From a bacterium (lineage in GTDB: Bacteria; UBA8248): DNA of 64,000 nt. The stretch spans positions 1,345,489-1,409,488 of the forward strand of contig CBDBBI010000010.1 in NCBI GenBank assembly GCA_965202625.1, written 5' to 3'. Position 1 is the stretch's first letter; every line of letters starts with the position of its first letter. The translations under genes and the position numbers were made by a program. The notes under the pieces were generated by a model. That model saw nothing but the letters and a program-made list of their open reading frames with translations. It was not told the origin of the DNA and did not search any database. Shown in pieces: positions 16,001 to 63,110 of the stretch.

Positions 16001-16201
16001 CTCTTTTCTCCTCTGGGAAAGAAAATACGTGAAACGACTTAAGAGACAGCGAAACAACTGCCTGAAGTCATGGATGAGGGAAGTATGCCACAGACGCGCC
16101 TTCATAACATCAAGCCCATCACGTCAAGAGGAAAGGGTGATGCCGCCAAACCATTCTGTGGTGCTCAGGCCAAGCCGCCCGTCCGGAATGAGGACGCGGG
16201 C

Positions 16202-17017: not shown

Positions 17018-17210
17018 AACCGTTTCTCCCCTTCATCAAAGCGTCCGCACATCCAGGAGACGACCCCTTGAGGGGGTTCTCCTCGCCTGGCAGGTTCTCG
17101 CGCACGCTGGGCGAAACGAGGCGCGCCTTGCTGGGCCGCACTCCCGTAAGGTATCCTGTGATCGATAGGAAGATTCTCGCGCATGACGTCTAAAAAAGAA
17201 AGCGGCTGCT

Positions 17211-40776: not shown

Positions 40777-40859
40777 GCACTCATTTCATCAAAGGGGGGG
40801 GAGGTAAAGCCCACCTGCCTTGTTGCGTCTCATATGCGGCGCAACAACTCCCGCGCAAC

Positions 40860-42863: not shown

Positions 42864-44258
42864 TCATTTGGAGAAGGTCGGGTTGCTTCTTTGCATCCAA
42901 TCCGTCCCTATTTTCTCCGCCAACCAGAATTCATATGGAGAATTGATTTTGACGCTTTCTTCGGGAAGCATGGTAATGTGTCCTACTTTTTCTCCAAATA
43001 ATTTTTTCGATAGTGTCACTTCCTTCCGGCTGAGGCAAATTGCCCCGTTTTCCTTGAACAATGCTTTCCTCTCCAAACGGAAGGTCCGGTTAGCAGAACC
43101 ATTTATGGGAAAAAGCCCGTTTCTTCCATGATGATAGAAAAAAGAAACGTCCTCGGTTATCGATATCACGGAATCCACGCCAAAAATGACCATGGAATCC
43201 ACAGCCTTATCAATATGCCGGCCTCTCCGAAATGGCGTGTTGACGTAGCACGTGCAAACGGCGTCAGGAGAATATCCCTGCCTTTCTTCTATCGTCCTTA
43301 CCACGTGAAACGCCGTATCCTCCACTCTGGAAAACCGCCTCCCCAACCCTTCGGGTCGAAAGAGGCCATCTACTCCCTCCAGTCGTTCTACATAGTCCAG
43401 AACGTCCGCATCGGACGAGGATACGACTACCTTATCGACGGATCGCGCTTTCTTGATTTCCTCGAGCGTTCGCTCCAACAGTGATTTTCCCATGAATTCC
43501 GTAAAAGGATTTCCGAGTGCGAATCCAGAGTCCACAGAAACGGGAACGAGGGCTAAAACTTTCGGCTTCCGCTTAAGGTTCATTTCCTCCACGACCCGCC
43601 GCTTGATCTGGCGGCGCGTTTCCAAGAGCGGACCTCGAGATTTCGACAAGCTGTCGCCATGCTGTCGATAATAAAACAGGGGCACGTTCACATTGTAGGG
43701 ACGATGCCGCTGAATGAATTTCAGCCACAGTCCATAACCGTCCTGGCGATTGAACTCCTCGTAATAACCGCCTATTTCCATCAGGACTTCTTTGCGGATC
43801 ATCGCGCATGCGCCATGGGCCGGAATATCCAGCAACTCGACTTCATCTCCTATTTTTTTGCGACGGACGATTTCCGTAACCTCTCCATTCTGGTCGACTT
43901 CATAATAATCCGGATACACCAAATCCACGTCGGGCTTTACGTCCAGGATGTTGGAAAGAACGAGGAGAATGTTCTCATCAAGGAAATCATCCGCATCCAC
44001 GCGCATCAGATATTCGCCATTGGCTGCGCGCAAAGCGATGTTGTTCGTAATATTCAAGCCTTTATTCTCTTGTTTGAGAATGCGAATCTTCGGATGATCT
44101 TTGTATTTTTCAAGCACTTGCGAAGTGTCGTCGGTCGAGCCGTCGTCAATGACGATCAACTCCCAGTCATCCATCGTCTGACGAAGGACGCTGCGAACCG
44201 CATCGTCAATAAAATGCGCATAGTTATACGTCGGAATATACACCGTGATTTTAGGCAT
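42864..44258 (-). CDS. Fusion: GT2 glycosyltransferase + degenerate cytidylyltransferase-like domain
   Basis: N-term IPTYNY, IDDGSTD, RVDADD; C-term VVVSSSD, RPEGL, FRRGRHIDKAV, ENGAI, KINSPYEFWLAE. Confidence 0.88.
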   Translation of the reverse strand: MPKITVYIPTYNYAHFIDDAVRSVLRQTMDDWELIVIDDGSTDDTSQVLEKYKDHPKIRILKQENKGLNITNNIALRAANGEYLMRVDADDFLDENILLVLSNILDVKPDVDLVYPDYYEVDQNGEVTEIVRRKKIGDEVELLDIPAHGACAMIRKEVLMEIGGYYEEFNRQDGYGLWLKFIQRHRPYNVNVPLFYYRQHGDSLSKSRGPLLETRRQIKRRVVEEMNLKRKPKVLALVPVSVDSGFALGNPFTEFMGKSLLERTLEEIKKARSVDKVVVSSSDADVLDYVERLEGVDGLFRPEGLGRRFSRVEDTAFHVVRTIEERQGYSPDAVCTCYVNTPFRRGRHIDKAVDSMVIFGVDSVISITEDVSFFYHHGRNGLFPINGSANRTFRLERKALFKENGAICLSRKEVTLSKKLFGEKVGHITMLPEESVKINSPYEFWLAEKIGTDWMQRSNPTFSK

Positions 44259-44297: not shown

Positions 44298-45890
44298 TTA
44301 CTTCACCATGTTCATGGCCAACGCCTGATCCGCCTTGATGTCCACTTTCGCTTCCTTGCCGAGCAAATCGTCGATCATCCAGCCCGGAAGGCCGTCGGCG
44401 GGCCTCTTCATGCCCAGCATGGAGGACTCTATCGTCTCTCCGGATTGAATGTCTCGTTCGGCGACAATGCTGCGCCGCGCGCTGTTGCGGGCGGGGTTTT
44501 CACGCTCGGCGACTTCAAGCGCGCCGCTGCCCAGGACGGTCTCCGCAAGACGGACGTTTTCCACCATCTTTTTCAAGTCCTCCGGATTCATCGAAAAGAA
44601 ATGTCCCGAGCCGGTCAGTTCCCGATCCAGAGTATAGTGCTTTTCAATGACTTTCGCCCCGAGAGCCACGCCCAGGGCGGGTATGGCCATATGCGCGTCC
44701 GGCTCCGTATGGTCGGACAAGCCAACGATAAGGCCGGGATATTTCTCCAGCAAGGCAGGGACGCGCAGAAGGTTCGCGTCCTCATTCGTCGTGGGATAAC
44801 TCAACATGCATGCCATGACGATGAGCTGATGGTTGCCTGCGTCGAAAATCGTGGAGACTGCCCGCTCAATCTCCTCCACCGTCGAGCCGCCGGTCGAAAG
44901 AATGACGGGCTTGCCAAAACCAGCCACGCGCCTGAGCAGTCGGCTGTCAGGAAGATCGCATGAGGCTATCTTGAAAAGCGACATGCCCAAATCGTTCAAC
45001 ATATCGGCGCTCTCCACGTCGAATGGCGTGGAAAATGGAATGACGTCTTTTTCAAGACTGTATGCGAAAAGCTCCTCGTATTCGAGAGCACCGAAACGAT
45101 CCAGCTGGCGGTAATACTCTATTTGCGGTATTTCCTTTCCCTGCCAGTAAGTCGTGGCTTCCTTGCGCGTCAAACGCTCCGCCTTGTAGGTCTGGAACTT
45201 GATCGCGTCCACTCCGGCTTCAGCGGCGAGGTCGATCATCTCCTTGGCCATCCGCATGTCGCACATGTGATTGCAAGCCGCCTCCGCAATAAGAAAGGCG
45301 GGATGGCCATCTCCTATCATTTTGTTTCCGACGGAAATCTCCTTCGCATACGGGCTCATCTCGTGCGCAGACATGAGAAGATCGAACGCGCGATGGACGT
45401 TGACGCAATCATCACGCACGGCGGACGCATACAACGGGGGCTTCGCCGTCAAGGCCCTCGTGCTCATAATGCGAAGTGCCCCGTTTCGCCTCCCCTTCCG
45501 GTCTACCGTGCACAGATCGTCTATTTTGTTGTCCTGCACGTATTTCAGCAGAGCGTCGAGGTCGCTTCTCCTGGTCGGATGGTCAGGCTGAATTCCGACA
45601 ACGAAAGAAACGCTCTCACTCCCCCATTCATTGAGGACGTCTTGATACACCTCCATCAAGGGCGCCTCGCCGGTGAGCGCATCGCCCCGAAAATGAACGA
45701 GCGCGTTATTTTGCCTCGCAATCTCGGCGACGTCCTCGGAATCGGTGGATACGACAATATCGTCCACGCTGTTAAACTTCTTCGCATAATGGATGGCGTG
45801 CGCAACCAGAGAAACGCCGTTGATCCTCAGCAGATTCTTATCCGGTAGACGATTAGAGCGCCGTTTGGCTGGTATGATGGCGACGATCAT
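44298..45890 (-). CDS. Fusion: NeuA-type cytidylyltransferase + NeuB-type nonulosonate synthase with SAF domain
   Basis: IIPAKRRSNRLPDKN, VSTDS; then IAEAACNH, KFQ, STPFD, KIAS, GLSDH, EKHY, MKRPADG. Confidence 0.92.
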   Translation of the reverse strand: MIVAIIPAKRRSNRLPDKNLLRINGVSLVAHAIHYAKKFNSVDDIVVSTDSEDVAEIARQNNALVHFRGDALTGEAPLMEVYQDVLNEWGSESVSFVVGIQPDHPTRRSDLDALLKYVQDNKIDDLCTVDRKGRRNGALRIMSTRALTAKPPLYASAVRDDCVNVHRAFDLLMSAHEMSPYAKEISVGNKMIGDGHPAFLIAEAACNHMCDMRMAKEMIDLAAEAGVDAIKFQTYKAERLTRKEATTYWQGKEIPQIEYYRQLDRFGALEYEELFAYSLEKDVIPFSTPFDVESADMLNDLGMSLFKIASCDLPDSRLLRRVAGFGKPVILSTGGSTVEEIERAVSTIFDAGNHQLIVMACMLSYPTTNEDANLLRVPALLEKYPGLIVGLSDHTEPDAHMAIPALGVALGAKVIEKHYTLDRELTGSGHFFSMNPEDLKKMVENVRLAETVLGSGALEVAERENPARNSARRSIVAERDIQSGETIESSMLGMKRPADGLPGWMIDDLLGKEAKVDIKADQALAMNMVK

Positions 45891-47053
45891 CTTTTGCCCC
45901 CCCCCCGTCTCTCATTATCTGCGGATAAGCCGCTCTTGGAGAGTTTCTCCAGAACGGATATGCAAGAATCCACTGAATCCATTGGCAAGCCGTCAAACGG
46001 GGCACGACAAATCTTTTCCCACTCTCCTTTCACAAACCACTTATCAAGCAGTCCCGAAAAACCTTCAAACGAACACACCTCACAAAGCGTTCCGGGTAAA
46101 TTTGCAGAAGCACCCAGGACGTCCGATAAGGAATCCAGCCGGAGGCTGATCGTTGGTCGGCCACAACAAATGGCTTCATACAAAATCATGGAGTCGAATC
46201 CTAATATGAGGTTCGAGGAAAATACAACATCAAGGGCTGAGGGCCCGGAATCTATTTTCAAGTTGGGAAACGGCGACGCGGCGGTTCCCCATACTTCTCG
46301 CTCTCTGGGGTGAAGCCTCAGAAAAAAAATTGCCTCATGCCCCGCTTTACGTATTTTTTCCTCACAAAGGCGGAGTGCCTCCTCAATGATGGGAAGCCTC
46401 TCTCCCTTCAAGAATGGCTCAACAATCTGGGCTCGCCCAAGACCGGTAAAAACAGGCTGCGTAAAGAGAGAGCAAATAAAATCTTCTTTGCCGAGGTTGT
46501 TTTCTCGCCGAAAATTCACTTCGCTATCCCGCTTGGACAAAAGCAGCATCTCGAGATGGGGGCTTCCCACGACTACCATCCTGCTTGAGGAGACGCCCTC
46601 AGCAATTCCCTGGTCTCGCGATCGCGCGTCAATGACGCCGAGCACGTCTGGAAGATAAGAAAAATTCTTGTCCTCGTCATGTATTCTATGCCAGCCCCTC
46701 CAATCGTCCATCAGCGCGAAGCTCTTGAGCCCGAGTTGCCTCGCAGCCATGATAATGTATCCGTTTGAAGGGTCATAGTTATTGTTTGACGTTGTGCAGA
46801 ATATTACGTCAGGAGACAGGCGAGAAAGCAGGTCGCACGCGCCTTCAATGCTGAGCGGCACTTGATTCACCAGAGTTTCAAGGGGGACAACCTCTATATC
46901 ATGCGCTTTGAATACTTCAATGGCGAAAAGATGCACTATTACGCACAGACGATATTTCTCCGGGCGAACAAGGCTTTTAACGACAGGTAAAATAGCGCGC
47001 GCGCCACCCGCATCCTGGGCATAAACCAAAACAACAGGTCGGCAAGATTTCAA
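45887..47053 (-). CDS. Uncharacterised GT-B-fold protein (candidate nonulosonate transferase or UDP-sugar hydrolase)
   Basis: QDAGGA, LMDDW, VVVGSPHLE, RLHPRE, GFDSMILYEA. Confidence 0.55.
   Translation of the reverse strand: MKSCRPVVLVYAQDAGGARAILPVVKSLVRPEKYRLCVIVHLFAIEVFKAHDIEVVPLETLVNQVPLSIEGACDLLSRLSPDVIFCTTSNNNYDPSNGYIIMAARQLGLKSFALMDDWRGWHRIHDEDKNFSYLPDVLGVIDARSRDQGIAEGVSSSRMVVVGSPHLEMLLLSKRDSEVNFRRENNLGKEDFICSLFTQPVFTGLGRAQIVEPFLKGERLPIIEEALRLCEEKIRKAGHEAIFFLRLHPREREVWGTAASPFPNLKIDSGPSALDVVFSSNLILGFDSMILYEAICCGRPTISLRLDSLSDVLGASANLPGTLCEVCSFEGFSGLLDKWFVKGEWEKICRAPFDGLPMDSVDSCISVLEKLSKSGLSADNERRGGGKR
45897..45906. repeat. C10/G10 homopolymer at the junction of two ORFs
   Basis: Minus strand CGG GGG GGG GGC AAA AGA TGA, with ATGA overlap at 45887-45890. 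Confidence 0.95.
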
Positions 47054-48339
47054 CCGAAACTTCTCAGGGCGTCGGCGTTCTTTCGGACCTTCTCGACTGC
47101 GAGAACAAATTGGTCAATTTCCCTTTCGGTGTTCGGGTATCGGCAAATGTTCGTCAAAAGCAAGTCCTTCTCCCAGAGCCGCTCGACAACCGGACAGGTT
47201 CCCTTCGCGTATGACACGCCGCCCTCGCGCGCGTCGTCACGAAAAGGATAGCCTTTCGTCCCGTATGCGCTCCTCTTTTGATATATCGGTTCGAGATATA
47301 TAGGTCGCACATACCCCTCCGTCACTTGAACGCCTTCCTCCCTGAGGGCTCTCGCAAAAATTTCACGGGGGATGCCCATTTTCGTTTCATCATACTTCAT
47401 GGCGTAAAGGTAATAGACATGCGTGCAGCCCCGAGCGGTTTCCGGAGGGGTCAAGAAATCAAACTCGGCCAGCTGCTGGGTCAGGTTCTCGGCGAGGCGA
47501 ACCCGAATGCGCGTCAGTTCGTCCATCTTGCCGATTTGCGCAATGCCAACGGCTGCGCATATTTCCGGCAAGCGATAGTTAAAACCGACCATGTTCGTGA
47601 TATCTTCCCGGCCCATGGGGCCAATCACAACCTCCCCGTGATTGCGTTTCAACTGCATATGAAGCGCCAGCTCTTCCTTGTCCGTTAAGGCAACCCCGCC
47701 CTCGCCGCACTGGATGACCTTGTGATAATTCAGGCTCTGAACACCTATGTCCCCTACGGCGCCCGTCTTTTTTCCCGCGCACTCTGCGAGTGGGGCCTGG
47801 GCGTTGTCCTCAATGAGCATAAGTCCACGTCGGTCGGCAAGAGCGCGCAACTCCATCAATGGGGAGGGATGTCCAAACAGATTGACTGTGAGAATGGCGC
47901 GCGTTCTATCGTTTATCAAAGACTCCACCGAAGAAGGATCGATGCAGAACGTCGCATCCTCCACGTCGGCAAACACGGGGATCGCATTTTCCATGAGAAT
48001 ACTGCTCGCAGTGGCGCTCATGGTGAACGGGGATGTAATAATCTCCTCTCCAGGCTCAACCCCCGTCGCCGCCACCGCGCAATGCAGAGCCGACGTCGCT
48101 GAATTCACGCAGACGGCGCGCTTCACGCCGAACCTTTCGGCAAATAACTTTTCAAGCTTCCTGACTTTCACGCCGCCGAGGAAACGCTCCGAATGCGTCC
48201 CCGAGAATCCTGAAAGATGTTGGCTTCTCAAGCTGCTAAGAACCTCTTTTTCCTCAGCCTGATCGACCATCGTGGTATGCACGGCGTAAGGTTCTTTGCG
48301 TATGGGCTCTCCACCAAGAAGAGCTAATTTGCCGTTCAC
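47050..48339 (-). CDS. DegT/DnrJ/EryC1/StrS PLP-dependent sugar aminotransferase
   Basis: NSATSALH, EDNAQA, SLNYHKVIQCGEGG, GFNYR. Confidence 0.94.
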   Translation of the reverse strand: MNGKLALLGGEPIRKEPYAVHTTMVDQAEEKEVLSSLRSQHLSGFSGTHSERFLGGVKVRKLEKLFAERFGVKRAVCVNSATSALHCAVAATGVEPGEEIITSPFTMSATASSILMENAIPVFADVEDATFCIDPSSVESLINDRTRAILTVNLFGHPSPLMELRALADRRGLMLIEDNAQAPLAECAGKKTGAVGDIGVQSLNYHKVIQCGEGGVALTDKEELALHMQLKRNHGEVVIGPMGREDITNMVGFNYRLPEICAAVGIAQIGKMDELTRIRVRLAENLTQQLAEFDFLTPPETARGCTHVYYLYAMKYDETKMGIPREIFARALREEGVQVTEGYVRPIYLEPIYQKRSAYGTKGYPFRDDAREGGVSYAKGTCPVVERLWEKDLLLTNICRYPNTEREIDQFVLAVEKVRKNADALRSFG

Positions 48340-48355
48340 ATGCGTTCCCCTCGCG

Positions 48356-49363
48356 TCAAATAGGGGTCACTTTCCTCATTATATCCGATGAGAGGACGGC
48401 TTCGCAAATTTCAATCGCCCTCACGCCGTCGCGCAGAGAACAAGAGGGCGCATCACCAACCTCCAGGCACCTTACAAGCTCCTCTACAGCCCGAAGAGAA
48501 CTATTGCGCCACTGCGTTTCCTCTGGTCGCCGAGCAAGTTCCAACACCTGGAACAAGCGAAAGTAGGGGTCTTCACGCGCTTGGAATCGAAGAAGTTTCT
48601 GGCCCCTTTGCCCAATGACGATTCTTCCTCTATCCGTGATGATATCCGCATCAAAGAGGACATACTCCAACACAGGAACGTGTAAAAACGTAGCGTATAT
48701 CCCGCGCTCGAAAACAACGTCAAAATCCGCTCCAGAACCCCCAGCCTCATTGTCATTGTCAAACACCCTCAAAAGATGCACCTCTTTGGGGTCGCCAAAA
48801 AACCAACGCAGCAAATCAATATAATGGGAGGCGTTTTCCAACAAACCTTTTACGTAGTGCACAGTAACACGGATGACAGAGCCATGAATTCCACTCTCCA
48901 GCTCGCGCTTGAGTTGACGAAGAGTCGGGTTCCATCTCCGAAAGTAGTTCACCGCCACAGGCCGAGTCCCCGCGATAGAAATGGATTCACGCGCTTCTAT
49001 GGATGATTGCGCAACTGGTTTTTCGAGGAAAACGGCTTTCACGTCTGCGTCGCAAACTGCGCGCAAAGCGTTGAGATGATGCGCCGTAGGCAGGCAAATA
49101 CTCACGATATCGGGACGTTCCCGGTCAAGCATCTGATTGTAGTCCGCATACAACGTATCCACGCCCCAACGCCGGCCAAAAGCCGTCCGAGCGTCGGCGC
49201 TTACATCCGCAGCAGAGACAAGGTCGACGTCCGGGCAAGCCAGATACGCGCCCGCGTGCGTAGCGGTCCATTTGCCCTCGGAAAAATTATCGTATCGGGA
49301 GGCAATGTTCCCGCAGCCGATAATAGCCGCCTTATATGTGGCTTTGCCGCTGTTCAAAAACAC
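48356..49363 (-). CDS. Gfo/Idh/MocA-family sugar oxidoreductase
   Basis: IIGCGNI, FLEKPV, VNYFRRW, NASHYIDL. Confidence 0.92.
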   Translation of the reverse strand: MFLNSGKATYKAAIIGCGNIASRYDNFSEGKWTATHAGAYLACPDVDLVSAADVSADARTAFGRRWGVDTLYADYNQMLDRERPDIVSICLPTAHHLNALRAVCDADVKAVFLEKPVAQSSIEARESISIAGTRPVAVNYFRRWNPTLRQLKRELESGIHGSVIRVTVHYVKGLLENASHYIDLLRWFFGDPKEVHLLRVFDNDNEAGGSGADFDVVFERGIYATFLHVPVLEYVLFDADIITDRGRIVIGQRGQKLLRFQAREDPYFRLFQVLELARRPEETQWRNSSLRAVEELVRCLEVGDAPSCSLRDGVRAIEICEAVLSSDIMRKVTPI

Positions 49364-50123
49364 GCTGCTGAACGACCTGACGATTGATATCCAGAAGGCT
49401 TGGTTCCGTATCTAAAAGCCGCATCACATCGAATAGCGTGAAGCAAGGGTTCTTTGCATAAAGGCGGGTATAAATTGCGAGGATTAACTCGAAATCCTCC
49501 CGATTGTCTACAGTGAGACGGAGGCCCGGTCTGCGGCATTCCGACCACTTCCCCACCGCCTCAAAAGATTTTAGCCTGAATCTGTCTGGTCGTTCAAAAA
49601 TATAGGAGGTGACGTGCTCTCGATCGACAGGATCGTCGCTCCACCCAGCCACTTGCCTCAAGAGAGAAGTGGAGAAAATCTCCACGCTCGTTCCTATGGG
49701 AAACGTCGATTCTTCCTCCCATGAGGAGCTATGCCGCATCGAGGTATTCGCCACGTAATCGAATTTATCCGCAAGAAATAGTCCTACCATCTCATCAATA
49801 AGGAGCGGCTCCACAAGAGGGGCATCCCCGCCGAGTTCGACAATTACGTCTCCATTCCACGCATCAGCCGCTTGGAGAACTCGGCTCAGGACGTCTTCCT
49901 CGCTACCTCGGAAACAACCCAGGCCGCTTTCTTCGGCCACTCGAACGATGGGGTCGTCAAGCGGATTTGTCGTGGTCGCGATGATCGCCGCGTCTAAACT
50001 CTTCGCTCTAAGCACCCTTTCCGCCATTTGCGCCAGCATGGGTTTTCCGCATACATCCAGAAGCACTTTTCCCGGCAACCTCAAGGAATTCATCCTGGCT
50101 TCGATGATGGCGACGATTTTCAC
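49332..50123 (-). CDS. SpsF-like cytidylyltransferase (start re-assigned to GTG 50123)
   Basis: IIEARMNSLRLPGKVL, FRGSEEDVLSR, GDAPL, REHVT, RLTVDNREDF. Confidence 0.9.
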   Translation of the reverse strand: MKIVAIIEARMNSLRLPGKVLLDVCGKPMLAQMAERVLRAKSLDAAIIATTTNPLDDPIVRVAEESGLGCFRGSEEDVLSRVLQAADAWNGDVIVELGGDAPLVEPLLIDEMVGLFLADKFDYVANTSMRHSSSWEEESTFPIGTSVEIFSTSLLRQVAGWSDDPVDREHVTSYIFERPDRFRLKSFEAVGKWSECRRPGLRLTVDNREDFELILAIYTRLYAKNPCFTLFDVMRLLDTEPSLLDINRQVVQQRVFEQRQSHI

Positions 50124-50698
50124 TCGCGCTTCTCTTCTCGCATATCTTCCCAACGCACACGAAATATCCCCAATCGATATTCATCGACATAACCTGACCT
50201 ACAGAAAAAACTCTCTTTGAGCGTCGCTTCATGGAGATACCCGTTTTTCTCAAAACTTCGTCTCGAACCCTCATTCGTCGCCCACATACCGGCCGTAATC
50301 TTCCGAAGGTTGAGCTTCTCGAAGCCATGGGCAGTCATGAGAGCGATGGCTTCCGTCGCAACGCCTTTTCCCCAGAAACGCCTGTCGCCAATGACGATGC
50401 TCATATCGCCCGTTCGATGGACCCAGTCGATCTTATGAATGCCGACGACCCCCACGAGCAAACTTTCATCTTCTTTCATGACAACGCCAAACTGCACGTC
50501 CGTTCGGCTCTTCATAAGAGCGTCGAATACCTCCCGCTGCCCCTCCTCGGTTACGGGAAACGTTCCCTTGTTGATATTCTGCGTGACCTCAGAGGAATTG
50601 AACCAAGCGTGCCAAACCGGAATATCTTCCGCTTTCAACGCACGGAGAAATACGCGTTGACCACTTCTAAACATGGGACGCCCTTCTGGGTTTCGCAT
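50120..50698 (-). CDS. GNAT N-acetyltransferase (RimJ/RimL, PseH-like)
   Basis: FWGKGVATEA, LNLRKI, NEGSRRSFEKNG. Confidence 0.9.
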   Translation of the reverse strand: MRNPEGRPMFRSGQRVFLRALKAEDIPVWHAWFNSSEVTQNINKGTFPVTEEGQREVFDALMKSRTDVQFGVVMKEDESLLVGVVGIHKIDWVHRTGDMSIVIGDRRFWGKGVATEAIALMTAHGFEKLNLRKITAGMWATNEGSRRSFEKNGYLHEATLKESFFCRSGYVDEYRLGIFRVRWEDMREEKRE

Positions 50699-50710
50699 TG
50701 GTCTTGCGAT

Positions 50711-51649
50711 TCATGGCTTGAGCCAAGCCCTGCAATGCAGAAGATCGCCCACGCCCGCTTCCTGAAGTTGGCGCCGATAAAAATCATCCACCCCCTCAAG
50801 AACGTCTAAAAAAATCTTTCCCCGGGGGGTTTCTTTCCTGAGGAATTCGTTCGGAAAATTCAAATTCGTATGTTGGGAAGAACCAGTGTCGCCGCTTCCG
50901 GTATGCAGCCATTTGAAATGATTCGTGAGAGAGGCCGCAAGATAGTGGGTGCACTCAAAATCATATCCGCATTCCATCAGAAGCCTGCCCAAGCTTTTCT
51001 CCGTAAAATAATAAAGGTGATATTCACGGAAATAAAAATCCCTGTAATTCGCCACATCATAATAACTCGCAATCGGATCCAACAAGTTGGGAACGGCTAT
51101 AAAAACAACGGACTCTGGATGTATAAAGCGTTTCAAATCCTCCAAAAAATCCTTCACGCATGGAACGTGCTCAAGCACGGCGTGCATCACAACAACGTCG
51201 AATGGCAGTTCCGTCTCACAATCGATGAGGGGCTTGTCCCACACGGGAATACCGGCCGCATGTAACGTTCGAACGTGCGTGGGTGTAATCTCCACTCCCT
51301 GAACGTGCGAGACATTTCCCTGAATCGACCGTAGAAACGATCCGCGCCCGCAACCAACGTCCAAAACGCGAGACTCCGAACACAAATAGGGCTCCACCTC
51401 TTTCTTGTAAATTTTATAATTGTCGAACTTGGGAAGAGGTCTTTCTCTCAATTGATCGGGTGCGAAAACATAACCGTCATCCGAATACCAATCGTGGGTC
51501 GCCTGCGTTTCATCCCAGGTTTCCAGAAAACTGAGGTCGCATGAACCGCAAAAATACAGAGCGATATTTACCTGCTGATCTATTTTTCTCCCCCGAACCG
51601 TATTGCGGATGCGCCGCCCACGGTCGGAACAGATGGGACAGAAACTCAT
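50711..51649 (-). CDS. Class I SAM-dependent methyltransferase with N-terminal Cys4 zinc motif (start re-assigned to ATG 51649)
   Basis: CPIC...CGSC, VLDVGCGRG, GVEI, FDVVVMHAVLEHV, YHLYYFT. Confidence 0.9.
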   Translation of the reverse strand: MSFCPICSDRGRRIRNTVRGRKIDQQVNIALYFCGSCDLSFLETWDETQATHDWYSDDGYVFAPDQLRERPLPKFDNYKIYKKEVEPYLCSESRVLDVGCGRGSFLRSIQGNVSHVQGVEITPTHVRTLHAAGIPVWDKPLIDCETELPFDVVVMHAVLEHVPCVKDFLEDLKRFIHPESVVFIAVPNLLDPIASYYDVANYRDFYFREYHLYYFTEKSLGRLLMECGYDFECTHYLAASLTNHFKWLHTGSGDTGSSQHTNLNFPNEFLRKETPRGKIFLDVLEGVDDFYRRQLQEAGVGDLLHCRAWLKP

Positions 51650-53025
51650 TATGCCGGAATCCCCTCGTATGATGACAGCGAACGCCATGGCGGCATAAAG
51701 CCTTGGGTCTGCACGTCTTTCGCCATCTTCAGCAGGGAGAAGTCGTGATATCGTCGCGCGACGAGCTGCGCACCGAAAGGCAGGCCCTCGGAACTCTTGA
51801 ACGTGGGCACGTTCATCGTCGGGACGCCGCAAAGCGTCCATATGAGGCAGTTGTCTTTTTTGTCCCGCCCCATGATTCCTTTCGGCGCATGACCAGAAGT
51901 GGACAAGTTCAAAATCATATCGAAATCTTCAAAAAAATCGGAAAGAATCGTTTTTAGATTTTCTTGCTGCTCTAAACCCTCCCAATATTGCTCGGAGGTA
52001 ATCTTTTGGCCTTGCTCTATCATTTCCGAGAAAATATCGCTCAACTCGTCTCGATGCAACCGATATTCCTCATCAAAATAGTAAGACAGCCCTTTCTGAT
52101 AGACGAGCGCATGAATATCATGGGCGCGAGAGAACGGCTCAGGCAACTCAACCTCTCTTAATTCAACGTCTTCGCATCGGGATAGGTGGGACGCCAGCCG
52201 ACAAACGGCGTCCTTCGCATACTCTTCCGCATGTTCCCAACCTGGGCCCCTGACAAACGCCACCCTGTATGGCGGCTTCACCTGGCTTGATGACCAGTCG
52301 TCAAGATTGTTTTTGACATACGGATAATTCGCTCCCCTTACTCGAGCGGATTCAAACATCAACCACAGATCATCAATAGTCCTTGCAAAAAAAGATACGT
52401 GATCCAAAGTGTCGAGGGTCTTCAGGATCCCCGTTCTGGGCACGACTCCAAAGGAGGGCTTAAAACCATACACGCCAGAATAACTCGCAGGCCGTATCGT
52501 GGAGCCTGCGGTCTGCGTGCCTAGCGAGAACGGAACCATACAAGCGGCAACAGATACGGCTGAACCGCTGGACGAAGTCCCAGGAGAATAGGCCGGGTTA
52601 TACGGGTTCACCGTAGGCCCGGGATGATGAACGGCAAACTCCGCCGTGACGGTTTTGCCGAGCGTCAATCCGCCTTCCCTCTTGAGGTGAGATATTACCC
52701 GAGCGTCGTTGCCAGGGGTAAAGCCTTTCCAGATAGGACTTCCCATCCAGGTCTGAAAGTCCGCCGTGTTAATGACGTCTTTTACGCCGAAAGGCGCGCC
52801 CCAGAGAAGACCTTCGAACTCTCCCGCATTTATTTTCCGCTCTATTTCGCGCGCTTGGCGAATGGATATCTCCGGCTCAAAGTGCTGCCATGCGCAAAGA
52901 GAGGAGTCATACCGCTCTACCTGCGCGATACAGGAAAGGAGCCATTCCACAAGGCTTAATTTTCTTTTTTTTATGAGTTCTATCGCTTCGATGGCAAAAA
53001 GCGCGTTCGCTTCCATATCGCTCAT
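51649..53025 (-). CDS. Amidase-signature family enzyme (GatA-like fold)
   Basis: FGVKDVI (Lys), PGTSSSGSA (cis-Ser), GTQTAGSTIRPA (nucleophile Ser), GFKPS, GLPFGAQL. Confidence 0.92.
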   Translation of the reverse strand: MSDMEANALFAIEAIELIKKRKLSLVEWLLSCIAQVERYDSSLCAWQHFEPEISIRQAREIERKINAGEFEGLLWGAPFGVKDVINTADFQTWMGSPIWKGFTPGNDARVISHLKREGGLTLGKTVTAEFAVHHPGPTVNPYNPAYSPGTSSSGSAVSVAACMVPFSLGTQTAGSTIRPASYSGVYGFKPSFGVVPRTGILKTLDTLDHVSFFARTIDDLWLMFESARVRGANYPYVKNNLDDWSSSQVKPPYRVAFVRGPGWEHAEEYAKDAVCRLASHLSRCEDVELREVELPEPFSRAHDIHALVYQKGLSYYFDEEYRLHRDELSDIFSEMIEQGQKITSEQYWEGLEQQENLKTILSDFFEDFDMILNLSTSGHAPKGIMGRDKKDNCLIWTLCGVPTMNVPTFKSSEGLPFGAQLVARRYHDFSLLKMAKDVQTQGFMPPWRSLSSYEGIPA

Positions 53026-53027
53026 TT

Positions 53028-54170
53028 CTATGCGGAGTCAATTATTCCCACTTGATCGGGCCGAATGACTTTGGGCAGCTCCCGCGCCTGCCCCTCTCTC
53101 TGGCTCTCAAGGAGATCCAGAAATTCTTCTTCCGTGTATCCCGTGATCTCCAAGTAATAATCAAGCGCTCCGGGACGTTTCGAGTCAACTTTCCGCGCAA
53201 GCGCAAACCCCTCTTCACGCGACATAATTCCGTTTCTCACATCTATGCTCGCCTGGTCGGTACCTCTTCCAAACCCACGTTTTACCCACTTCGAATAATC
53301 GTGCACGCCCGCCATACGGCATTCCACGCTTTTGTATCCTTTATAAGCACCCTCGACCTTATCTTCACGCCACCCATATTCTCTTTTTATGAACTCCACC
53401 TGGCGTTCTCCGTCCCAAAACAGATAATCCCCTAAGTGGATTCCCCGCATACCGAGCGTATCAAGCTCTTCTTTGGGGGGAATAAGAAAAGGAAACAGAT
53501 CGCGCTCTGTCAGCCCAATATCTTCATCTACCATTTTTGATGAATCCACCTTCATCGAAACCTTCAAGTATAAGGTTTCGTCATACGGGAGAGGATCAGC
53601 GTATGTTGACTTGCTACCCAATTCAGCGGTTGACTCTCCCCAAACCATAAGGGGGATCCCATATTGCGTCGCCACTTTTAGAGGATAGGCTCCCACGCCT
53701 GCGTGACAATGCCAACAGGAATCGCCGATCGTCGTCAAAGATTTCCGGGCGATTTTGTTAATCACCCCTCGGTTCGGCGTGAACATGACATGGTCAACGT
53801 TAAACTTTTCCAAGCAATTTTGCAGATTCCACCAGCCGGTTTCTGTCCACCAATTATGGCTAAACGTGCAAGTGAGAGGTCTTAACCCATAAACTCGCGT
53901 CAGAACGTGAAGCTGAAAACAGCTATCTTTGCCCCCGCTTATAGGGACCAGGCAATCATAGTTGTCCCCTGCTTCAGCCTTCGCCTTTTCCAATATACTT
54001 TTTAACTGCGCCTCCCGTTCTATCCAATTGATGTGCATCTTCATTTCAGAACTGCGGCACGCCTTACAAATTCCAAGCGCGTCAAAATCCATTCCCTCTG
54101 AGGTCTCCGGCATGCAGCACCGCACACAATATCGCAACTCTGAAAAAGGAGCGTTTCTCGAAGCCGGCAT
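53028..54170 (-). CDS. N-acetyl sugar amidotransferase (PseA/WbpG/WbuX/PtmG family, PP-loop)
   Basis: CVRCCMPET...CKAC, YDCLVPISGGKDS, CWHCH, WGE, KRGFGR. Confidence 0.93.
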   Translation of the reverse strand: MPASRNAPFSELRYCVRCCMPETSEGMDFDALGICKACRSSEMKMHINWIEREAQLKSILEKAKAEAGDNYDCLVPISGGKDSCFQLHVLTRVYGLRPLTCTFSHNWWTETGWWNLQNCLEKFNVDHVMFTPNRGVINKIARKSLTTIGDSCWHCHAGVGAYPLKVATQYGIPLMVWGESTAELGSKSTYADPLPYDETLYLKVSMKVDSSKMVDEDIGLTERDLFPFLIPPKEELDTLGMRGIHLGDYLFWDGERQVEFIKREYGWREDKVEGAYKGYKSVECRMAGVHDYSKWVKRGFGRGTDQASIDVRNGIMSREEGFALARKVDSKRPGALDYYLEITGYTEEEFLDLLESQREGQARELPKVIRPDQVGIIDSA

Positions 54171-54238
54171 CTGTCTATTCCCTCAAGAATAAATGTGATG
54201 TTGACGTTCTTTTTTATTTATCGGCAAACCAGGCGCCT

Positions 54239-55513
54239 TTACGAAGCCTGTGGAATCAAAGGCATGATTTGTCCTGCCTGTCGAAGCACCATGACCTTGG
54301 ATTCTGGCCCCGTCGCTTCCAATGCGTTATCCACCGCCGCCTGTATGGATGCAGACCAGCCAAATCCCATCCTGTTCGCTTCCTCCTGATGGACGTGAGG
54401 AGAAACCAATATGCCCTTCACGCGCTTCGAAATGATTCTGCCAACAGCAATCAGCGTATAGGCCAAGAGCTTTTCGCGAAACTCCCCCGCTTCAACGGCT
54501 CGATAAAGCGAATCGGGCTCCCGAAACCCGTAGCGTTCGAAATTCGGAAATTGCGGAGAAACACCCTCACGACAATCCGAAGCCAACACGATAATCCCGT
54601 TATCCCGACACACGACATCCGCCGCACACACGGCTTTGATGGCCTGACGAAGATCGATGTCAGACGGATAGGCTTCGACGACAACGACGTCCGCCGTTCC
54701 ATCCACCGGCACCCCGTATAATTCCAGACATCGATCACACCCTGTTTTGTGTGCGCATTCCACATCGCCTGCAACGGCATCATAGATTCTTTCATCGTCT
54801 ATCATAACCGTGTTGACGATGAAACGGACGCCAGCCTGACGCGCAATGCGAACGCACGCCTTCCTCACCTTGTTGTGAAAATTCCCGAGAATTTCGCTCA
54901 TCTCATAATCCAGAGCAGACCAATGCGTCGCTTCTATCGTCGCCTCTCCGCAAACGCCGGGCATGACGCTCTTCGCCCCACCAGAGAACCCCGCAGTCGC
55001 ATGAGGGATGATGCTGCCGACGGAGATGAGAAAATCCGATTTCAATACTTCCTTGTTCATCTGCACGTCGAAGCCGAGTTTACTCCGTCCTAACGAAGTC
55101 AACGCCGCAGGGTTGTCCCATTCATGGTTGAGAATTTGAAACCGAGAGGCCAGATGATGACCGAACTTGCGCTGTATCTCCTCCTCCGTCATGGCGCGAT
55201 GCGTGCCCAAGCCAATCAGAATGCGAACACACGCATCCGGAACGTCGGCCTCAGCGAGTTCCTCCAGAATGAAGGGGAGGACGCGATGAAGCGGAGTGTG
55301 GCGCGTATTGTCATCCGTAGCAATCAACACCCTCTTCGCCCCTCTGGCCATCTCTCTGAGAGGGGGAGTACCGATTGGGTTGCGAATTCGCTCCCTAAGA
55401 GCGCGCTCGTCAAGCCCTTCACCGTTCGGCGGCGAGGGTCCATACACGCCCATCAGACGCTCATCTCTCACCTCAAAGTCTTCAAACGGGCCCTTCGTGA
55501 GAGATATTTTCAT
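54239..55513 (-). CDS. larA: LarA-family nickel-pincer-dependent alpha-hydroxyacid racemase/epimerase (start re-assigned to ATG 55513)
   Basis: TDDNTRHTP, GLGTHR, PHATAGFSGGAKS, ATH, QAIK: equivalents of the LarA catalytic and cofactor-binding residues are all present. Confidence 0.9.
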   Translation of the reverse strand: MKISLTKGPFEDFEVRDERLMGVYGPSPPNGEGLDERALRERIRNPIGTPPLREMARGAKRVLIATDDNTRHTPLHRVLPFILEELAEADVPDACVRILIGLGTHRAMTEEEIQRKFGHHLASRFQILNHEWDNPAALTSLGRSKLGFDVQMNKEVLKSDFLISVGSIIPHATAGFSGGAKSVMPGVCGEATIEATHWSALDYEMSEILGNFHNKVRKACVRIARQAGVRFIVNTVMIDDERIYDAVAGDVECAHKTGCDRCLELYGVPVDGTADVVVVEAYPSDIDLRQAIKAVCAADVVCRDNGIIVLASDCREGVSPQFPNFERYGFREPDSLYRAVEAGEFREKLLAYTLIAVGRIISKRVKGILVSPHVHQEEANRMGFGWSASIQAAVDNALEATGPESKVMVLRQAGQIMPLIPQAS

Positions 55514-55529: not shown

Positions 55530-57380
55530 CTAATCTTTCCATAATTTTGCATCCGTCGAACAGAACATGTCCACCCATTCTGAACGCCAGTTTTTACCAC
55601 CCCGATAATAACGATACGCAAATGCGCTTACCGCTTCTTGCGTCTCGCTATCCTCCCACCACGAATCCACGTCAGGCCAGACGGCGTTCAAATGTCTCGC
55701 CGCGCTCTCCGGAGATGAGTGATGCACTTTCACTTCTCTCAATTTTTCGATATCGGACTTCGCATCACGCGAAACCCTCCAAACATTTTCGTTCCAGAAA
55801 AAAATAGTGGGTATGCCCGCCGCCATCGTGAATGCCGCAGTTGTCCCCATGTAAGGGAGAACGCAAACCCTGCATTGGGCTAACGCAGGGGACATCCGAC
55901 CAGATAGGAGCCCCACCAATTTCTCGGTGAGTATTTGGACGCCAGAGCACTTTTCCTGCACGTAGCGCTGGACATATCGAAGGCCAACCGCTGTGGGATG
56001 AGGCTTGTAAAACAAAGTGGAGCGAAGGGCATCGTTTAGGTGACGGATGAAATGCACCTCGTCCACCATATGTTGCGGGATGTCTTCGGGCAGATGATCC
56101 GTTGCCAGCAATTTTGAATACACAATTAGGCACGAACCTATCAAAACGATGGATGAATTCCGCTTTCGACTTCGCTTTACTTTTGAAAGAAGGGGGGATG
56201 CGGCCGGCACTGCGGTTACTTGATAATCAGATTGAACCTCCCACCCCCACGATATGAATCTATCCGCCGCCTTATACTCGACAAGGTGGTACCAAGGATG
56301 CGCTTCCTTTAGGCCGTAACCTCCCCCATGCTGATTGACAACCAGACGGACAGGACGCCTCTCCAGCAGATTGGACACGTAGAATTTTGCTTGGTCGTCA
56401 GTCCCTAAAACAGGGCCACATGCGATGGTGTCCGTCCAAGGTGACGTCGCTTTTATCTTTACCAAAGCCTTTTTCTCGTTTGCTCGAAAATCATCCGTGA
56501 ACGCTTTGGGCATCGTTTCTTCAATGAGCCCATCCACAACCTGCAAGAAAATCTCGGCTTCTCTGGCGTCAATATCTTGAATGGATCCGATCTCTTCCAT
56601 GATGTCGTCTTTGGAGATACTCCCATTTTTCGCTTCAGATTTTTTCTGAAATGATTTTACGGCATCCTTACATCGTCTTGCGTTTCGAAATCGCATCCGA
56701 AGAGCCATATAAAAGCTATCGAATGGATTCAAGCCCTGTACTCTGAGAAACTGCACATATCCCAGATTAGAAGCCAAAATATGGGCCCAGTGGTAAATTT
56801 CCAATTTTCTGTTCGGCTTCTTGAACTTAGCATAGTTTTCTCGTGTGAATAGATTTGCATGCTCCTCCGGTGCAGGCGCGCCATCTCGCATCACCCATCC
56901 CGCCGGCCGATATGCGCGGAAAAAACGGCTGAAAATAAGCCGGTTCAGCGGATCCTGGAATATCAGATAATCAAAATGGGATGTCGTAACCGAGGAGAGG
57001 CTTTCATCCTGAGGCGCGAGATATACCAGATATGGGGTGTTGCTCTTTAGCTGATTGCGGATTCGCAAAAACCGCTCAAAAGAACATATGACTACCCTCA
57101 AAAGCCATCCCATCAACAATATGCGCCAATATCGCTTGGAATAAGAACGTCGGTGCCTTTCGTTTTGCAGATGTCTCAATTTGGCGACGTAAAATTCACA
57201 AACCCTCTCCAGCTTTTGCGAGACGGGCAAAATATCCTCATGCTTGATCACTCGGCGGATTCCATGTTTTTCCCATCCCCACTGAAAAAACTGCGCATCT
57301 GAAAGGGACCACGGACCCAGATGCTCGGCTTCATATTCGCTTGAGATGGGATCCATTCTCGTAAGGATGAGTTGCTTCAA
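55530..57380 (-). CDS. LIC12162-family putative transferase
   Basis: YWRILLMGWL, QHGGGYG, FISWGW, YKPHP, TMAAGIPTIFFWN. Confidence 0.75.
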   Translation of the reverse strand: MKQLILTRMDPISSEYEAEHLGPWSLSDAQFFQWGWEKHGIRRVIKHEDILPVSQKLERVCEFYVAKLRHLQNERHRRSYSKRYWRILLMGWLLRVVICSFERFLRIRNQLKSNTPYLVYLAPQDESLSSVTTSHFDYLIFQDPLNRLIFSRFFRAYRPAGWVMRDGAPAPEEHANLFTRENYAKFKKPNRKLEIYHWAHILASNLGYVQFLRVQGLNPFDSFYMALRMRFRNARRCKDAVKSFQKKSEAKNGSISKDDIMEEIGSIQDIDAREAEIFLQVVDGLIEETMPKAFTDDFRANEKKALVKIKATSPWTDTIACGPVLGTDDQAKFYVSNLLERRPVRLVVNQHGGGYGLKEAHPWYHLVEYKAADRFISWGWEVQSDYQVTAVPAASPLLSKVKRSRKRNSSIVLIGSCLIVYSKLLATDHLPEDIPQHMVDEVHFIRHLNDALRSTLFYKPHPTAVGLRYVQRYVQEKCSGVQILTEKLVGLLSGRMSPALAQCRVCVLPYMGTTAAFTMAAGIPTIFFWNENVWRVSRDAKSDIEKLREVKVHHSSPESAARHLNAVWPDVDSWWEDSETQEAVSAFAYRYYRGGKNWRSEWVDMFCSTDAKLWKD

Positions 57381-57432: not shown

Positions 57433-58530
57433 TCAAGTGATAAAATGCGAATGATGAGACGCTCTCCCAAGCGCATCCCATGTCAATTCTTCGCCCGCTC
57501 GCATTCGGCGGGTTACTCGTCTTCCGATTACTCTATCCACTTCATATGGCGGGATGGCCCCTTGAGGAGCGGGTCTCAGAACTTCAATGTGTTCCCGCGC
57601 AATGACGGCCCCGACTTCCAAATCAGACCGAGCGCGCAAACATCTTCTTTGCAAAACCGCAGTGTCTCGCTCGTTCTCGCTTATCACCTTTTCCCTTCTT
57701 CCCAGAGCCAATTCCAATTCCCGGGTTCTATCGACCATCTCCCGCCAGGCATCAGGCGTCATCGAAAAGATATGATCGGGACCCCTTCGATTGACGTCAT
57801 CCGTAAAATGCTTCTCGACGATTCTCCCCCCCAACGCAATCGCCCCCAAAACCGTCGCATGGCCGGGCGTATGGTCAGACAAACCGAGGATCAACGAGGG
57901 ATAAAGCGCCCGGAACGCGCTCAAAACGTTCAGATGTATATGCTGAAAATTCTCCATTGACCCCGTATAGTTCGTGTTGCACTGGAGAAGCGCCAACTCT
58001 TCGTTGCGCCGCAAAATACACTTGACCGCCTGTTGGACGTCTTGCAAGTCCGAGGCGCCGGTTGCGAGCATGACGGGCTTTCCCTTTTCCGAAATCTTTT
58101 GGAGCATTTCATGCCATGTAATGTCTCCTGAGCCAATTTTATACACATCCACGTACGGCTCAAGAAAATCCACCGCCTCAAAATCATACGGAGATGAAAA
58201 AAAATCAATCCCTGCCTCATCACAGCAAATTTTAAGCGCCTCCGTCCATTCCCAGGGGAGGGAGGCGTCTTCATAAATCTCATATACCGACTTTTCCCAT
58301 GCAGCCTGATGGGACAACTTGTCCGCCATGGCGTCAAACCCATGTTCACTCACAATTTCAGGGGCGCGAAAATGTTGAAACTTCGCCGCGTCGGCCCCCG
58401 CCTCCTTCGCGAGATGAACAAGCCGCTTTGCGCGCTCAAGGCTACCATCATGGTTGGCTGCGATATCGGCGATGAAATATGTCGGATGGTCGTCTCCAAT
58501 CCATCGACCTCCAACACGGAAATTCGGCAT
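57433..58530 (-). CDS. neuB: NeuB-family nonulosonate synthase with SAF domain
   Basis: IADIAANHDG, KFQ, SSPYD, KIGSGD, GLSDH, EKHFT, DHIFS, LRPAP. Confidence 0.93.
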   Translation of the reverse strand: MPNFRVGGRWIGDDHPTYFIADIAANHDGSLERAKRLVHLAKEAGADAAKFQHFRAPEIVSEHGFDAMADKLSHQAAWEKSVYEIYEDASLPWEWTEALKICCDEAGIDFFSSPYDFEAVDFLEPYVDVYKIGSGDITWHEMLQKISEKGKPVMLATGASDLQDVQQAVKCILRRNEELALLQCNTNYTGSMENFQHIHLNVLSAFRALYPSLILGLSDHTPGHATVLGAIALGGRIVEKHFTDDVNRRGPDHIFSMTPDAWREMVDRTRELELALGRREKVISENERDTAVLQRRCLRARSDLEVGAVIAREHIEVLRPAPQGAIPPYEVDRVIGRRVTRRMRAGEELTWDALGRASHHSHFIT

Positions 58531-58548
58531 ATTCAGGAATCCCTCCAC

Positions 58549-62633: not shown

Positions 62634-63110
62634 CAACGAAACCCTCAAAGTTCATCATGCCTTGAAAACCGAGAACATCGCTCAGCCTTCAAAGGCAATA
62701 CAATAATACGTCCAGGAATTTTCCATATATTTGGCGCAAAAAATGGGGAGCAAACATCAGCACCCAATACCCCAGAAACCCTTTCGCAAAAACCACATCC
62801 CTAAGCAAATCCAAAAATGGTTTTCTTTTCTCTATCGCCTCCTTATGTCATGGCTCAATATCCAAACGCTTCTACTCTAGGTGCCACTATGGCTGAGGCG
62901 TATCGCAAGCCCGGGGGATGAGACATGACCTTCGGCTTCTTGCTGCTTGCCTCCAGCGCATCCGCTTATGGACCTTATATTCCCCGCTCCATAGCTCGAA
63001 TACCGCGATCATTATAAAATCACCCTTATTTTCGCCACAGAATCAGCATCCGCCTCAAAAGGCAAGGTTGCGCATCAAGCCGAAAACGGAGGCCAACGTC
63101 GAGGAAATTT

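Follow-up and report, generated by a model that had tools for sequence, protein, structure and literature searches.

The subject of this analysis is a group of five genes on the minus strand of a 64-kb stretch of DNA (the window; contig CBDBBI010000010.1, positions 1,345,489 to 1,409,488) from a bacterium of the UBA8248 lineage, and in particular the partnership between two of these genes, those for a sugar amidotransferase and an amidase. In the direction of transcription, the five genes encode a homolog of the lactate racemase LarA (54239-55513; 424 aa, Lar_N and LarA_C domains); WbuX, the PP-loop synthetase subunit of an N-acetyl-sugar amidotransferase (NASAT; 53028-54170; 380 aa, TIGR03573); an amidase of the amidase-signature (AS) family (51649-53025; 458 aa, PF01425); a Zn-ribbon class I S-adenosylmethionine (SAM)-dependent methyltransferase (MT; 50711-51649; 312 aa, Methyltransf_23); and a GNAT N-acetyltransferase (50120-50698; 192 aa, Acetyltransf_3, PF13302). 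The group is embedded in a minus-strand gene run of approximately 38 kb that extends from about 25.8 kb to the end of the window. An earlier examination of this DNA, hereinafter the sequence-only reading, considered the five genes to be a single cassette that tailors a nonulosonic acid (NulO).

The genes are tightly packed and, exactly as the sequence-only reading described, lie on one strand with overlaps or gaps of at most 68 nt. Reading the junctions from the sequence, the LarA and WbuX genes are separated by an A/T-rich spacer of 68 nt (54171-54238, minus strand), WbuX and the amidase by 2 nt, and the MT and GNAT by 12 nt, and the amidase and MT genes overlap by 1 nt (TAATG); the longest open reading frame of the MT opens at 51841, inside the amidase gene, and initiation at the coupled ATG at 51649 gives a product of 312 aa, the length of the orthologs. 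The flanking genes, all on the same strand, are packed just as tightly. Directly upstream of LarA, at a distance of 16 nt, is the gene for a LIC12162-family transferase (55530-57380; 616 aa; TIGR04331, 306 bits vs. a cut-off of 225). Downstream, the GTG start codon of a CTP_transf_3 cytidylyltransferase (49332-50123) overlaps the GNAT stop codon (GTGA), and is followed by a GFO/IDH/MocA oxidoreductase (48356-49363), a DegT/DnrJ/EryC1 aminotransferase (47050-48339; 429 aa) that overlaps the next gene (TTGA), a remote member of the UDP-GlcNAc 2-epimerase (GT-B) superfamily that we denote unk388 (45887-47053), a cytidylyltransferase (CTP)::NeuB fusion (44298-45890; 530 aa) and a GT2::cytidylyltransferase fusion (42864-44258; 464 aa). 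A scan of the 44-58 kb segment yielded fewer promoter- and terminator-like sites than shuffled controls, so that internal transcription units cannot be claimed. Given this lack of enrichment and the equally tight packing of the neighbors, the boundary of the five-gene group is arbitrary, and the group is a slice of the ~38-kb minus-strand glycan operon. Moreover, contigs from marine metatranscriptomes (at least 99% identity) span the cytidylyltransferase/GNAT, GNAT/MT, MT/amidase and LarA/LIC12162 junctions, which fits one long transcript, with the qualification that carry-over of DNA into the libraries is possible.

The assignment of the amidotransferase to the NASAT/WbuX family, which includes PtmG, PseA and WbpG, holds up. 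The protein scores 330.3 bits against TIGR03573, well over the cut-off of 203.2, and matches the structure of the Legionella pneumophila NASAT (8WEX) with 158 bits. It retains both the PP-loop (S78GGKDS) and the Zn-binding tetracysteine (C15VRC18...G33IC35KAC38), that is, the SGGXDS and CXXCXn[GN]XCXXC motifs by which the family and its chemistry are defined (PMC10607449). The product of the next gene is a full-length AS enzyme that scores 239 bits against PF01425, above the gathering score, and in which K82, cis-S151 and S175, invariant in 40 orthologs, align with K62, S131 and S155 of malonamidase E2. Among proteins of solved structure, it comes nearest to malonamidase E2 (185 bits), followed by GatA (121 bits). 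GatA is also the top NCBIfam match, but the score against TIGR00132 is 192.8 bits compared to the equivalog cut-off of 481.1; the amidase reaches the cut-off of no NCBIfam equivalog, and neither gatB nor gatC adjoins it.

An exact-sequence look-up of the amidase of the window returned no match, and the locus contexts were therefore taken from homologs. All proteins of the window cluster were mapped onto 83 non-redundant loci with amidase orthologs, which come from Omnitrophota, Verrucomicrobiota, Desulfobacterota, Planctomycetota, Chloroflexota, Acidobacteriota, Proteobacteria, Ignavibacteria, candidate-phyla-radiation lineages and archaea. In 72 of the 74 loci with enough upstream DNA, the gene directly 5′ of the amidase, in the same orientation, encodes WbuX (at least 45% identity); in the other two, WbuX is directly 3′ of the amidase. 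In the WbuXYZ, WbpG-HisH2F2 and MMP1081-1083 systems, the NASAT is accompanied by HisH/HisF-type partners. Indeed, the usual set for the formation of acetamidino groups consists of WbuX, HisF2/AglZ and HisH (PMC11340318). Using the Escherichia coli proteins as queries, we detected no HisH or HisF homologs in the 64-kb window or in 80 of the 83 amidase loci; the three loci that do encode them (L015, L017 and L025) are exactly those with a second, divergent WbuX paralog (28-35% identity).

Fusions and phylogeny show the same pattern. Searching 1.84 billion representative proteins with WbuX as the query, we found eight representatives in which a WbuX of this clade is fused, in the N-to-C direction, to an AS amidase (P0285, P0286, P0289, P0290, P0291 with 874 aa, P0333, P0364 and P0378); in the other clade, the fusion partner of WbuX is HisH (P0311) or HisF (P0317 and P0336). 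Among the four amidase fusions examined for motifs, P0285, P0286 and P0291 keep the PP-loop, the four cysteines and the Lys and cis-Ser of the amidase, and P0378 retained only the cis-Ser motif of the amidase; P0291, P0286 and P0378 each recur on several independent contigs and sources. In a neighbor-joining tree of 174 sequences, all 84 amidase-linked WbuX proteins form one exclusive clade. Furthermore, in the locus L097 (1-4700), the position of WbuX-amidase is occupied by HisH-HisF-WbuX (32% identity), followed by the same GFO-DegT-unk388-NeuB-LarA-GT2::cytidylyltransferase genes, which is a natural case of non-orthologous displacement. A side observation on the fusions concerns P0285 (1181 aa) and P0286 (1150 aa), which are triple-domain proteins with WbuX, a degenerate second WbuX-like domain (25-30% identity) and the AS amidase; the P0286-type protein is found on at least 13 contigs.

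The conserved adjacency, the fusions, the exclusive clade, the lack of HisH/HisF and the exchange in L097 make the amidase a likely ammonia-supplying subunit. On this strong comparative evidence, it is most likely the functional counterpart of HisH/HisF, in other words, the predicted generator of ammonia for WbuX. The sequence-only reading gave the amidase no role, and the present data indicate that it is the key partner of WbuX. No paper that connects an amidase with WbuX or with the making of acetamidino groups was recovered in a literature search, and the pairing, widespread as it is, apparently has not been described previously.

The pair has clear parallels with two groups of known systems. 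The first consists of the WbuXYZ-type systems, namely E. coli O145 WbuXYZ, Pseudomonas aeruginosa O5 WbpG with HisH2/HisF2, Campylobacter jejuni PseA/PtmG, Methanococcus maripaludis MMP1081-1083 and the L. pneumophila NASAT (8WEX). With these, the system of the window shares the TIGR03573 synthetase with its SGGKDS PP-loop and Zn tetracysteine, the setting in surface-glycan or NulO clusters and the predicted chemistry, in which an N-acetyl group, NH3 and ATP would be converted to an acetamidino group, AMP and PPi. It differs in that HisH and HisF2/AglZ are missing, the AS amidase is adjacent or fused to WbuX, and WbuX belongs to a clade of its own, with about 32-36% identity to the WbuX proteins linked to HisH/HisF. 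The second parallel is GatCAB, in which the ATP-dependent synthetase subunit receives its ammonia from GatA, a glutaminase of the AS family. Both systems combine an AS enzyme that has the Ser-cisSer-Lys triad with an amidating subunit that uses ATP; however, the amidase of the window is not a GatA equivalog, its partner is a PP-loop NASAT as opposed to GatB/GatC, the predicted acceptor is the N-acetyl group of a sugar and not an aminoacyl-tRNA, and the association of the two proteins is a predicted one.

The MT scores 66 bits against Methyltransf_23 and contains, in addition to the VLDVGCGRG motif, an N-terminal Zn ribbon formed by C4xxC7 and C34xxC37. The family is small, with approximately 33 orthologs of the MT (METHYLTRANSFERASE) at 39% identity or more. 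All nine contexts recovered for it are within the neighborhood of a WbuX gene, and in seven of these, the MT is directly 3′ of the amidase (the window, L001, L091, L092, L094, the P0271 locus and, in a broken form, L002); in the remaining two, it lies directly 3′ of WbuX (L104) or about 4.5 kb away (L093). The fact that the family is seen only beside WbuX supports a tie between the MT and the WbuX product. A parallel exists in Campylobacter (PtmG/PtmH) and L. pneumophila serogroup 1 (ORF28/ORF8), where these enzymes convert Leg5Am7Ac to Leg5AmNMe7Ac; the sequence-only reading relied on these systems correctly. There as here, a gene for a NASAT precedes that for a SAM-dependent methyltransferase in a nonulosonic acid locus. 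The window differs by the presence of the amidase between the two genes and by a methyltransferase that does not belong to TIGR03587, and its sugar is probably not legionaminic acid. By analogy with PtmH, the MT most likely methylates the WbuX product to give an N-methyl-acetimidoyl group. The coupling of the MT to the amidase that had been noted from the sequence thus extends to a constant association with WbuX neighborhoods, and N-methylation, as opposed to O- or C-methylation, is the part of that proposal that we infer.

In one relative (L092, 12581-18502), the genes next to WbuX-amidase-MT-DegT encode an AMP-binding enzyme, an Antibiotic_NAT protein, a carbamoyltransferase and a ComA::ComB-type (phosphosulfolactate synthase/phosphatase) fusion. 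These neighbors are a hint that, in some relatives, the sugar carries a carbamoyl group or a 2-hydroxy acid similar to sulfolactate.

The GNAT protein is RimJ/SpeG-like (94 bits against PF13302), with SpeG-type GNATs, a generic match, as the best solved structures. Across the 83 amidase loci, DegT is present in 64, GNAT in 59, GFO in 56 and the cytidylyltransferase in 36, compared to a single locus each for LarA and the MT. The GNAT gene is directly beside the WbuX-amidase pair in 33 loci and directly 5′ of WbuX in 26, and the set that recurs next to the pair consists of CTP_transf_3, GFO/IDH/MocA, unk388, DegT and GNAT. Hence the GNAT belongs to a larger conserved block for an amino sugar and is not the extra decoration that it had been taken for; the N-acetyl group on which WbuX acts is probably introduced by this enzyme. 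Within this block, the GFO protein retrieves only generic inositol-dehydrogenase structures; it is the proposed oxidase of a sugar hydroxyl that would feed the aminotransferase. The best solved structures for DegT are 8GYH, perosamine synthase, scyllo-inosose aminotransferases and KdnA. With regard to unk388, 9 of the 27 orthologs match PF02350, and the family profile finds UDP-GlcNAc 2-epimerase 4NEQ as the best solved structure (E = 9e-5), which makes it a candidate NeuC/LegG-like hydrolyzing epimerase.

We also considered the possibility that GNAT and DegT are the PseH and PseC enzymes of the standard pseudaminic acid pathway, and rejected it as the principal interpretation. Both proteins are far under the respective cut-offs (for GNAT, 32.4 bits vs. 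93.1 for PseH, TIGR03585), the nearest structures of DegT do not include PseC, and GFO accompanies DegT in most loci. The families and the logic of the block are instead those of WbpB/WbpE/WbpD/WbpG, which produce UDP-ManNAc(3NAm)A in P. aeruginosa O5, namely GFO, DegT, an N-acetyltransferase and a NASAT, with the difference that the acetyltransferase of the window is a GNAT and not a left-handed beta-helix protein. Furthermore, the combination of CTP_transf_3, NeuB and a NeuC-like protein in the window speaks for a CMP-ulosonic acid and against a UDP-uronic acid.

The LarA homolog (Lar_N, 190 bits; LarA_C, 42 bits) belongs to a different context. In the LarA superfamily, Lys184 and His200 bind the nickel-pincer nucleotide (NPN), and His108 and His174 are catalytic. 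These four residues of the lactate racemase (H108, H174, K184 and H200) align with H105, H171, K181 and H197 of the homolog, which are invariant in its clade, and the equivalents of D72, R75, Q295 and K298 are conserved as well. In comparison with the lactate racemase LarA of Lactiplantibacillus plantarum (5HUQ) and the malate racemase Mar2, the homolog thus shares the Lar_N/LarA_C fold, the NPN-tethering Lys, the Ni-ligand His and both catalytic His. It differs in that Tyr294 is replaced by Arg289, which is invariant in the clade, in being under all NCBIfam equivalog cut-offs (NF052593, 298 vs. 500 bits; lactate racemase, 280 vs. 460) and outside the characterized specificity groups (lactate, malate, LarAH10 and others), and in residing in a glycan module with NeuB, a cytidylyltransferase and GT2. 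As judged from these residues, it is a predicted catalytically competent 2-hydroxyacid epimerase of the nickel-pincer type. None of the window open reading frames scanned encodes LarB, LarC or LarE.

Close homologs of this LarA (50-82% identity) were placed in 28 informative loci (L087-L119), and in 27 of these, the gene is flanked by a CTP::NeuB-type synthase, the GT2::cytidylyltransferase fusion or both. In L087 and L095, the order is LIC12162-LarA-CTP::NeuB-GT2::CTP-ABC, with nothing between LarA and CTP::NeuB, the usual direct neighbor of LarA in other genomes. This backbone is also that of the window, where eight genes, from WbuX to unk388 (45887-54170), are inserted between LarA and CTP::NeuB. 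The block meets the backbone, on the left, at the 68-nt spacer, and unk388 is its last gene. The LIC12162-family transferase takes the same position beside LarA in L001, L087 and L095. The constancy of the NeuB and GT2::CTP partners, together with the loci that contain LarA without WbuX or the amidase, shows that LarA belongs to a separate module, and the place in a tailoring cassette that the sequence-only reading gave it does not stand. The two modules probably serve the same glycan since they are found side by side in L089-L091, L098, L099 and L103. The surveys of the LarA superfamily consulted contain no mention of sialic acid, NeuB, polysaccharides or any glycan context; the NeuB-LarA-GT2::CTP trio, of which the GT2::cytidylyltransferase fusion is the third member, suggests a nickel-pincer enzyme that acts in ulosonic-acid or glycan synthesis.

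These contexts bear directly on the proposal of a single cassette, in which all five products would act in sequence on one CMP-nonulosonate: LarA by epimerization, WbuX by amidination, the amidase by a step of its own, the MT by N-methylation and the GNAT by acylation. Such a cassette would account for the finding of the five genes, in the same order, in the closest relative (L001, 63-87% identity), for the presence of all five families in one cluster in L091, for the transcripts that span the junctions, and for the occurrence of WbuX and/or the amidase near LarA in 7 of the 28 LarA loci, with variants in L097 and L104. It nevertheless appears distinctly unlikely. L001 is the sole amidase locus, 1 of 83, with LarA and likewise with the MT, and L002 holds decayed remnants of both; LarA is adjacent to WbuX only in the window and L001, where the adjacency coincides with the 68-nt junction, and it occurs with neither WbuX nor the amidase in L087, L095, L102 and L105-L108. 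The genes can be found together in other genomes, but they do not constitute a conserved unit.

Thus, we propose, with a probability of roughly 0.6, that the five genes bring together members of three functional units within one long, co-transcribed surface-glycan operon of the NulO type. The first unit would be a two-component amidotransferase, made as a single fused protein in some organisms, in which the amidase hydrolyzes an amide donor, probably glutamine, and hands the ammonia to WbuX, which in turn would use ATP, with release of AMP and PPi, to convert an N-acetyl group of the sugar to an acetamidino group. For the WbuX proteins of this clade, ammonia would come from the amidase in place of HisH/HisF2 (WbuY/WbuZ), and the MT would then methylate the product to yield the N-methyl-acetimidoyl group. 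The second unit would consist of the GNAT together with the cytidylyltransferase, GFO, DegT and the NeuC-like protein, which are predicted to oxidize a hydroxyl, transaminate it and N-acetylate the resulting amine prior to amidination, following the WbpB/WbpE/WbpD/WbpG logic on a CMP- or NDP-activated ulosonic-acid precursor. The result would be a sialic-acid-like route in which an additional amino group is first acetylated and then amidinated, with the amination taking place either before or after the condensation by NeuB. The third unit would be LarA as a member of the NeuB-LarA-GT2::cytidylyltransferase trio, split from NeuB here by the WbuX-to-unk388 block. The sequence-only reading is, overall, partly supported: an N-methyl-acetimidoyl nonulosonate is a plausible end product that gains support from the comparative data, and the functions assigned to LarA and the GNAT fall away.

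Several considerations weigh against this proposal, and most of them lead to specific alternatives. The amidase is closest, among solved structures, to malonamidase E2 and not to GatA, the cut-off of which is far from reached. Combined with the presence of secondary-amide hydrolases in the AS family, this could favor an amidase that acts on the sugar, either as a de-N-acetylase that frees an amine to be acylated again or as an amidine or amide hydrolase that edits the WbuX product, and that does not donate ammonia. We consider such a role improbable in view of the strict mutual exclusion between the amidase and HisH/HisF as partners of WbuX and the fixed WbuX-to-amidase order of the fusions, which parallels the WbuX-HisH and HisF-WbuX fusions; besides, malonamidase E2 itself frees ammonia from a primary amide. 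The amidase-linked WbuX clade is, furthermore, only ~26-40% identical to the WbuX proteins linked to HisH/HisF, so that its chemistry could differ. PP-loop enzymes, such as NAD synthetase and asparagine synthetase, often amidate carboxylates, and WbuX of this clade might perform another ATP-dependent amidation, for example, of a sugar carboxylate to a carboxamide, with the amidase as the glutaminase and no acetamidino group formed. This option seems very improbable to us given the whole-protein score well over the TIGR03573 cut-off, the retention of the tetracysteine and PP-loop, the HisH/HisF-type WbuX that occupies the same pathway context in L097, and the GNAT gene directly 5′ of WbuX in more than two dozen loci.

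Similar considerations apply to the MT. It scores 19.3 bits against TIGR03587, the pseudaminic-acid-associated methylase family, for which the cut-off is 112, and its structural neighbors, both weak matches, are limited to the putative methyltransferase 3CC8 and the sugar C-methyltransferase TcaB9, neither of which discriminates among N-, O- and C-methylation. Methylation of a sugar hydroxyl or carbon, or of a 2-hydroxyacyl substituent, in place of the amidine nitrogen, would agree with the low TIGR03587 score and with neighbors that are generic class I enzymes or, as in the case of TcaB9, a Zn-binding nucleotide-sugar C-methyltransferase. We regard this as a serious, if rather unlikely, contender: the confinement of the family to the vicinity of WbuX, with seven contexts 3′ of the amidase and that of L104 3′ of WbuX itself, is better matched by a substrate made by WbuX, and the arrangement mirrors the adjacency of ptmG and ptmH in Campylobacter.

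The other reservations concern the proposal as a whole. In L104 (1252-3316), a WbuX with 44% identity that falls outside the amidase-linked clade is directly followed by an ortholog of the Zn-ribbon MT, with neither an amidase nor HisH/HisF in the sequence covered; in at least one near relative, the amidase therefore is dispensable or encoded elsewhere. False fusions can be created by gene calls in metagenomes, and the recurrence of the fusions on independent contigs argues against this source of error. The function given here for the WbuX-amidase clade is one predicted by comparison. Finally, the target sugar and the order of steps given above are those that we infer, and the GFO and DegT steps could fall before or after the NeuB condensation.

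A more ambitious joint interpretation is that the WbuX-amidase pair is an unrecognized class of amidotransferase and that the trio contains the first nickel-pincer enzyme dedicated to surface-glycan synthesis. We advance this conjunction tentatively, as something short of an even chance. In such a case, the AS amidase may channel ammonia to the PP-loop NASAT in a system that is spread across bacteria, candidate-phyla-radiation lineages and archaea, and the route may lead to a new diamino or triamino nonulosonic acid through late oxidation and transamination of a sialic-acid-like precursor, with an N-methyl-acetimidoyl group at the end.

The surroundings of the five genes provide further context. 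The glycan run has a G+C content of ~50% compared to ~60% in the flank and, given this difference, looks like a multi-sugar glycan island that apparently was acquired horizontally. The segment 25800-64000 encodes three NeuB paralogs (the fusion at 44298-45890, 57433-58548 and 61566-62648), at least five cytidylyltransferase domains, an ABC exporter, Wzz-like and Wzy_C proteins and two families of large surface-carbohydrate transferases (TIGR04331 and TIGR04326). Long G/C homopolymers are found only within the glycan locus: C9 at 31865-31873, G13 at 34629-34641, near the 5′ end of the gene for an SDR epimerase/dehydratase (33825-34766), G8 at 40794-40801, and C10 at 45897-45906, within the final codons of unk388, just ahead of the CTP::NeuB start. 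These tracts may be sites of phase variation by slipped-strand mispairing, by analogy with the Campylobacter glycan loci; the C10 tract is one base shorter in one RNA-derived contig (run X8), where a sequencing slip is possible. At the edge of the island, on the plus strand (22673-24622), an asparagine-synthase-type amidotransferase is encoded that best resembles the XrtA/PEP-CTERM-associated family TIGR03108, with 591 bits, under the cut-off of 817.

The high-GC flank (2546-18077) appears to serve catabolism and to have no connection with the glycan locus; it encodes a TRAP-type DctM transporter, several NMT1-like binding proteins, two GFO/IDH/MocA oxidoreductases, a sulfatase, an enolase-superfamily (MR/MLE) enzyme and metallo-beta-lactamase-fold proteins. 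As for the source of this DNA, the segment 50120-55513 was traced in the runs X1-X10: four of them, all from one organism, contain it at a word share of 1.00 (0.94 in a single case), and it is partly present in sponge metagenomes and marine metatranscriptomes; hence the source may be marine and possibly sponge-associated.

Acetamidino groups, which occur in pathogens such as Legionella, Campylobacter and Pseudomonas, neutralize the charge of acidic surface sugars and thereby alter surface recognition. To our knowledge, the HisH/HisF2 pair is the only supply of ammonia for NASATs recognized so far. The synthetase described here is from the known NASAT family, and the predicted new part is the AS amidase in the place of the HisH/HisF2 partnership. 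If this prediction is correct, the respective loci, in which these amidases are currently labeled as a generic 'amidase' or 'GatA family', would have to be re-annotated, a new member would be added to the catalogue of glutaminase-synthetase pairings, and a compact tool for the enzymatic amidination of sugars, in the form of two genes or a single fusion, would become available. The association of LarA with NeuB and GT2::cytidylyltransferase, if borne out, would extend nickel-pincer chemistry from central 2-hydroxyacid metabolism to the synthesis of cell-surface glycans.

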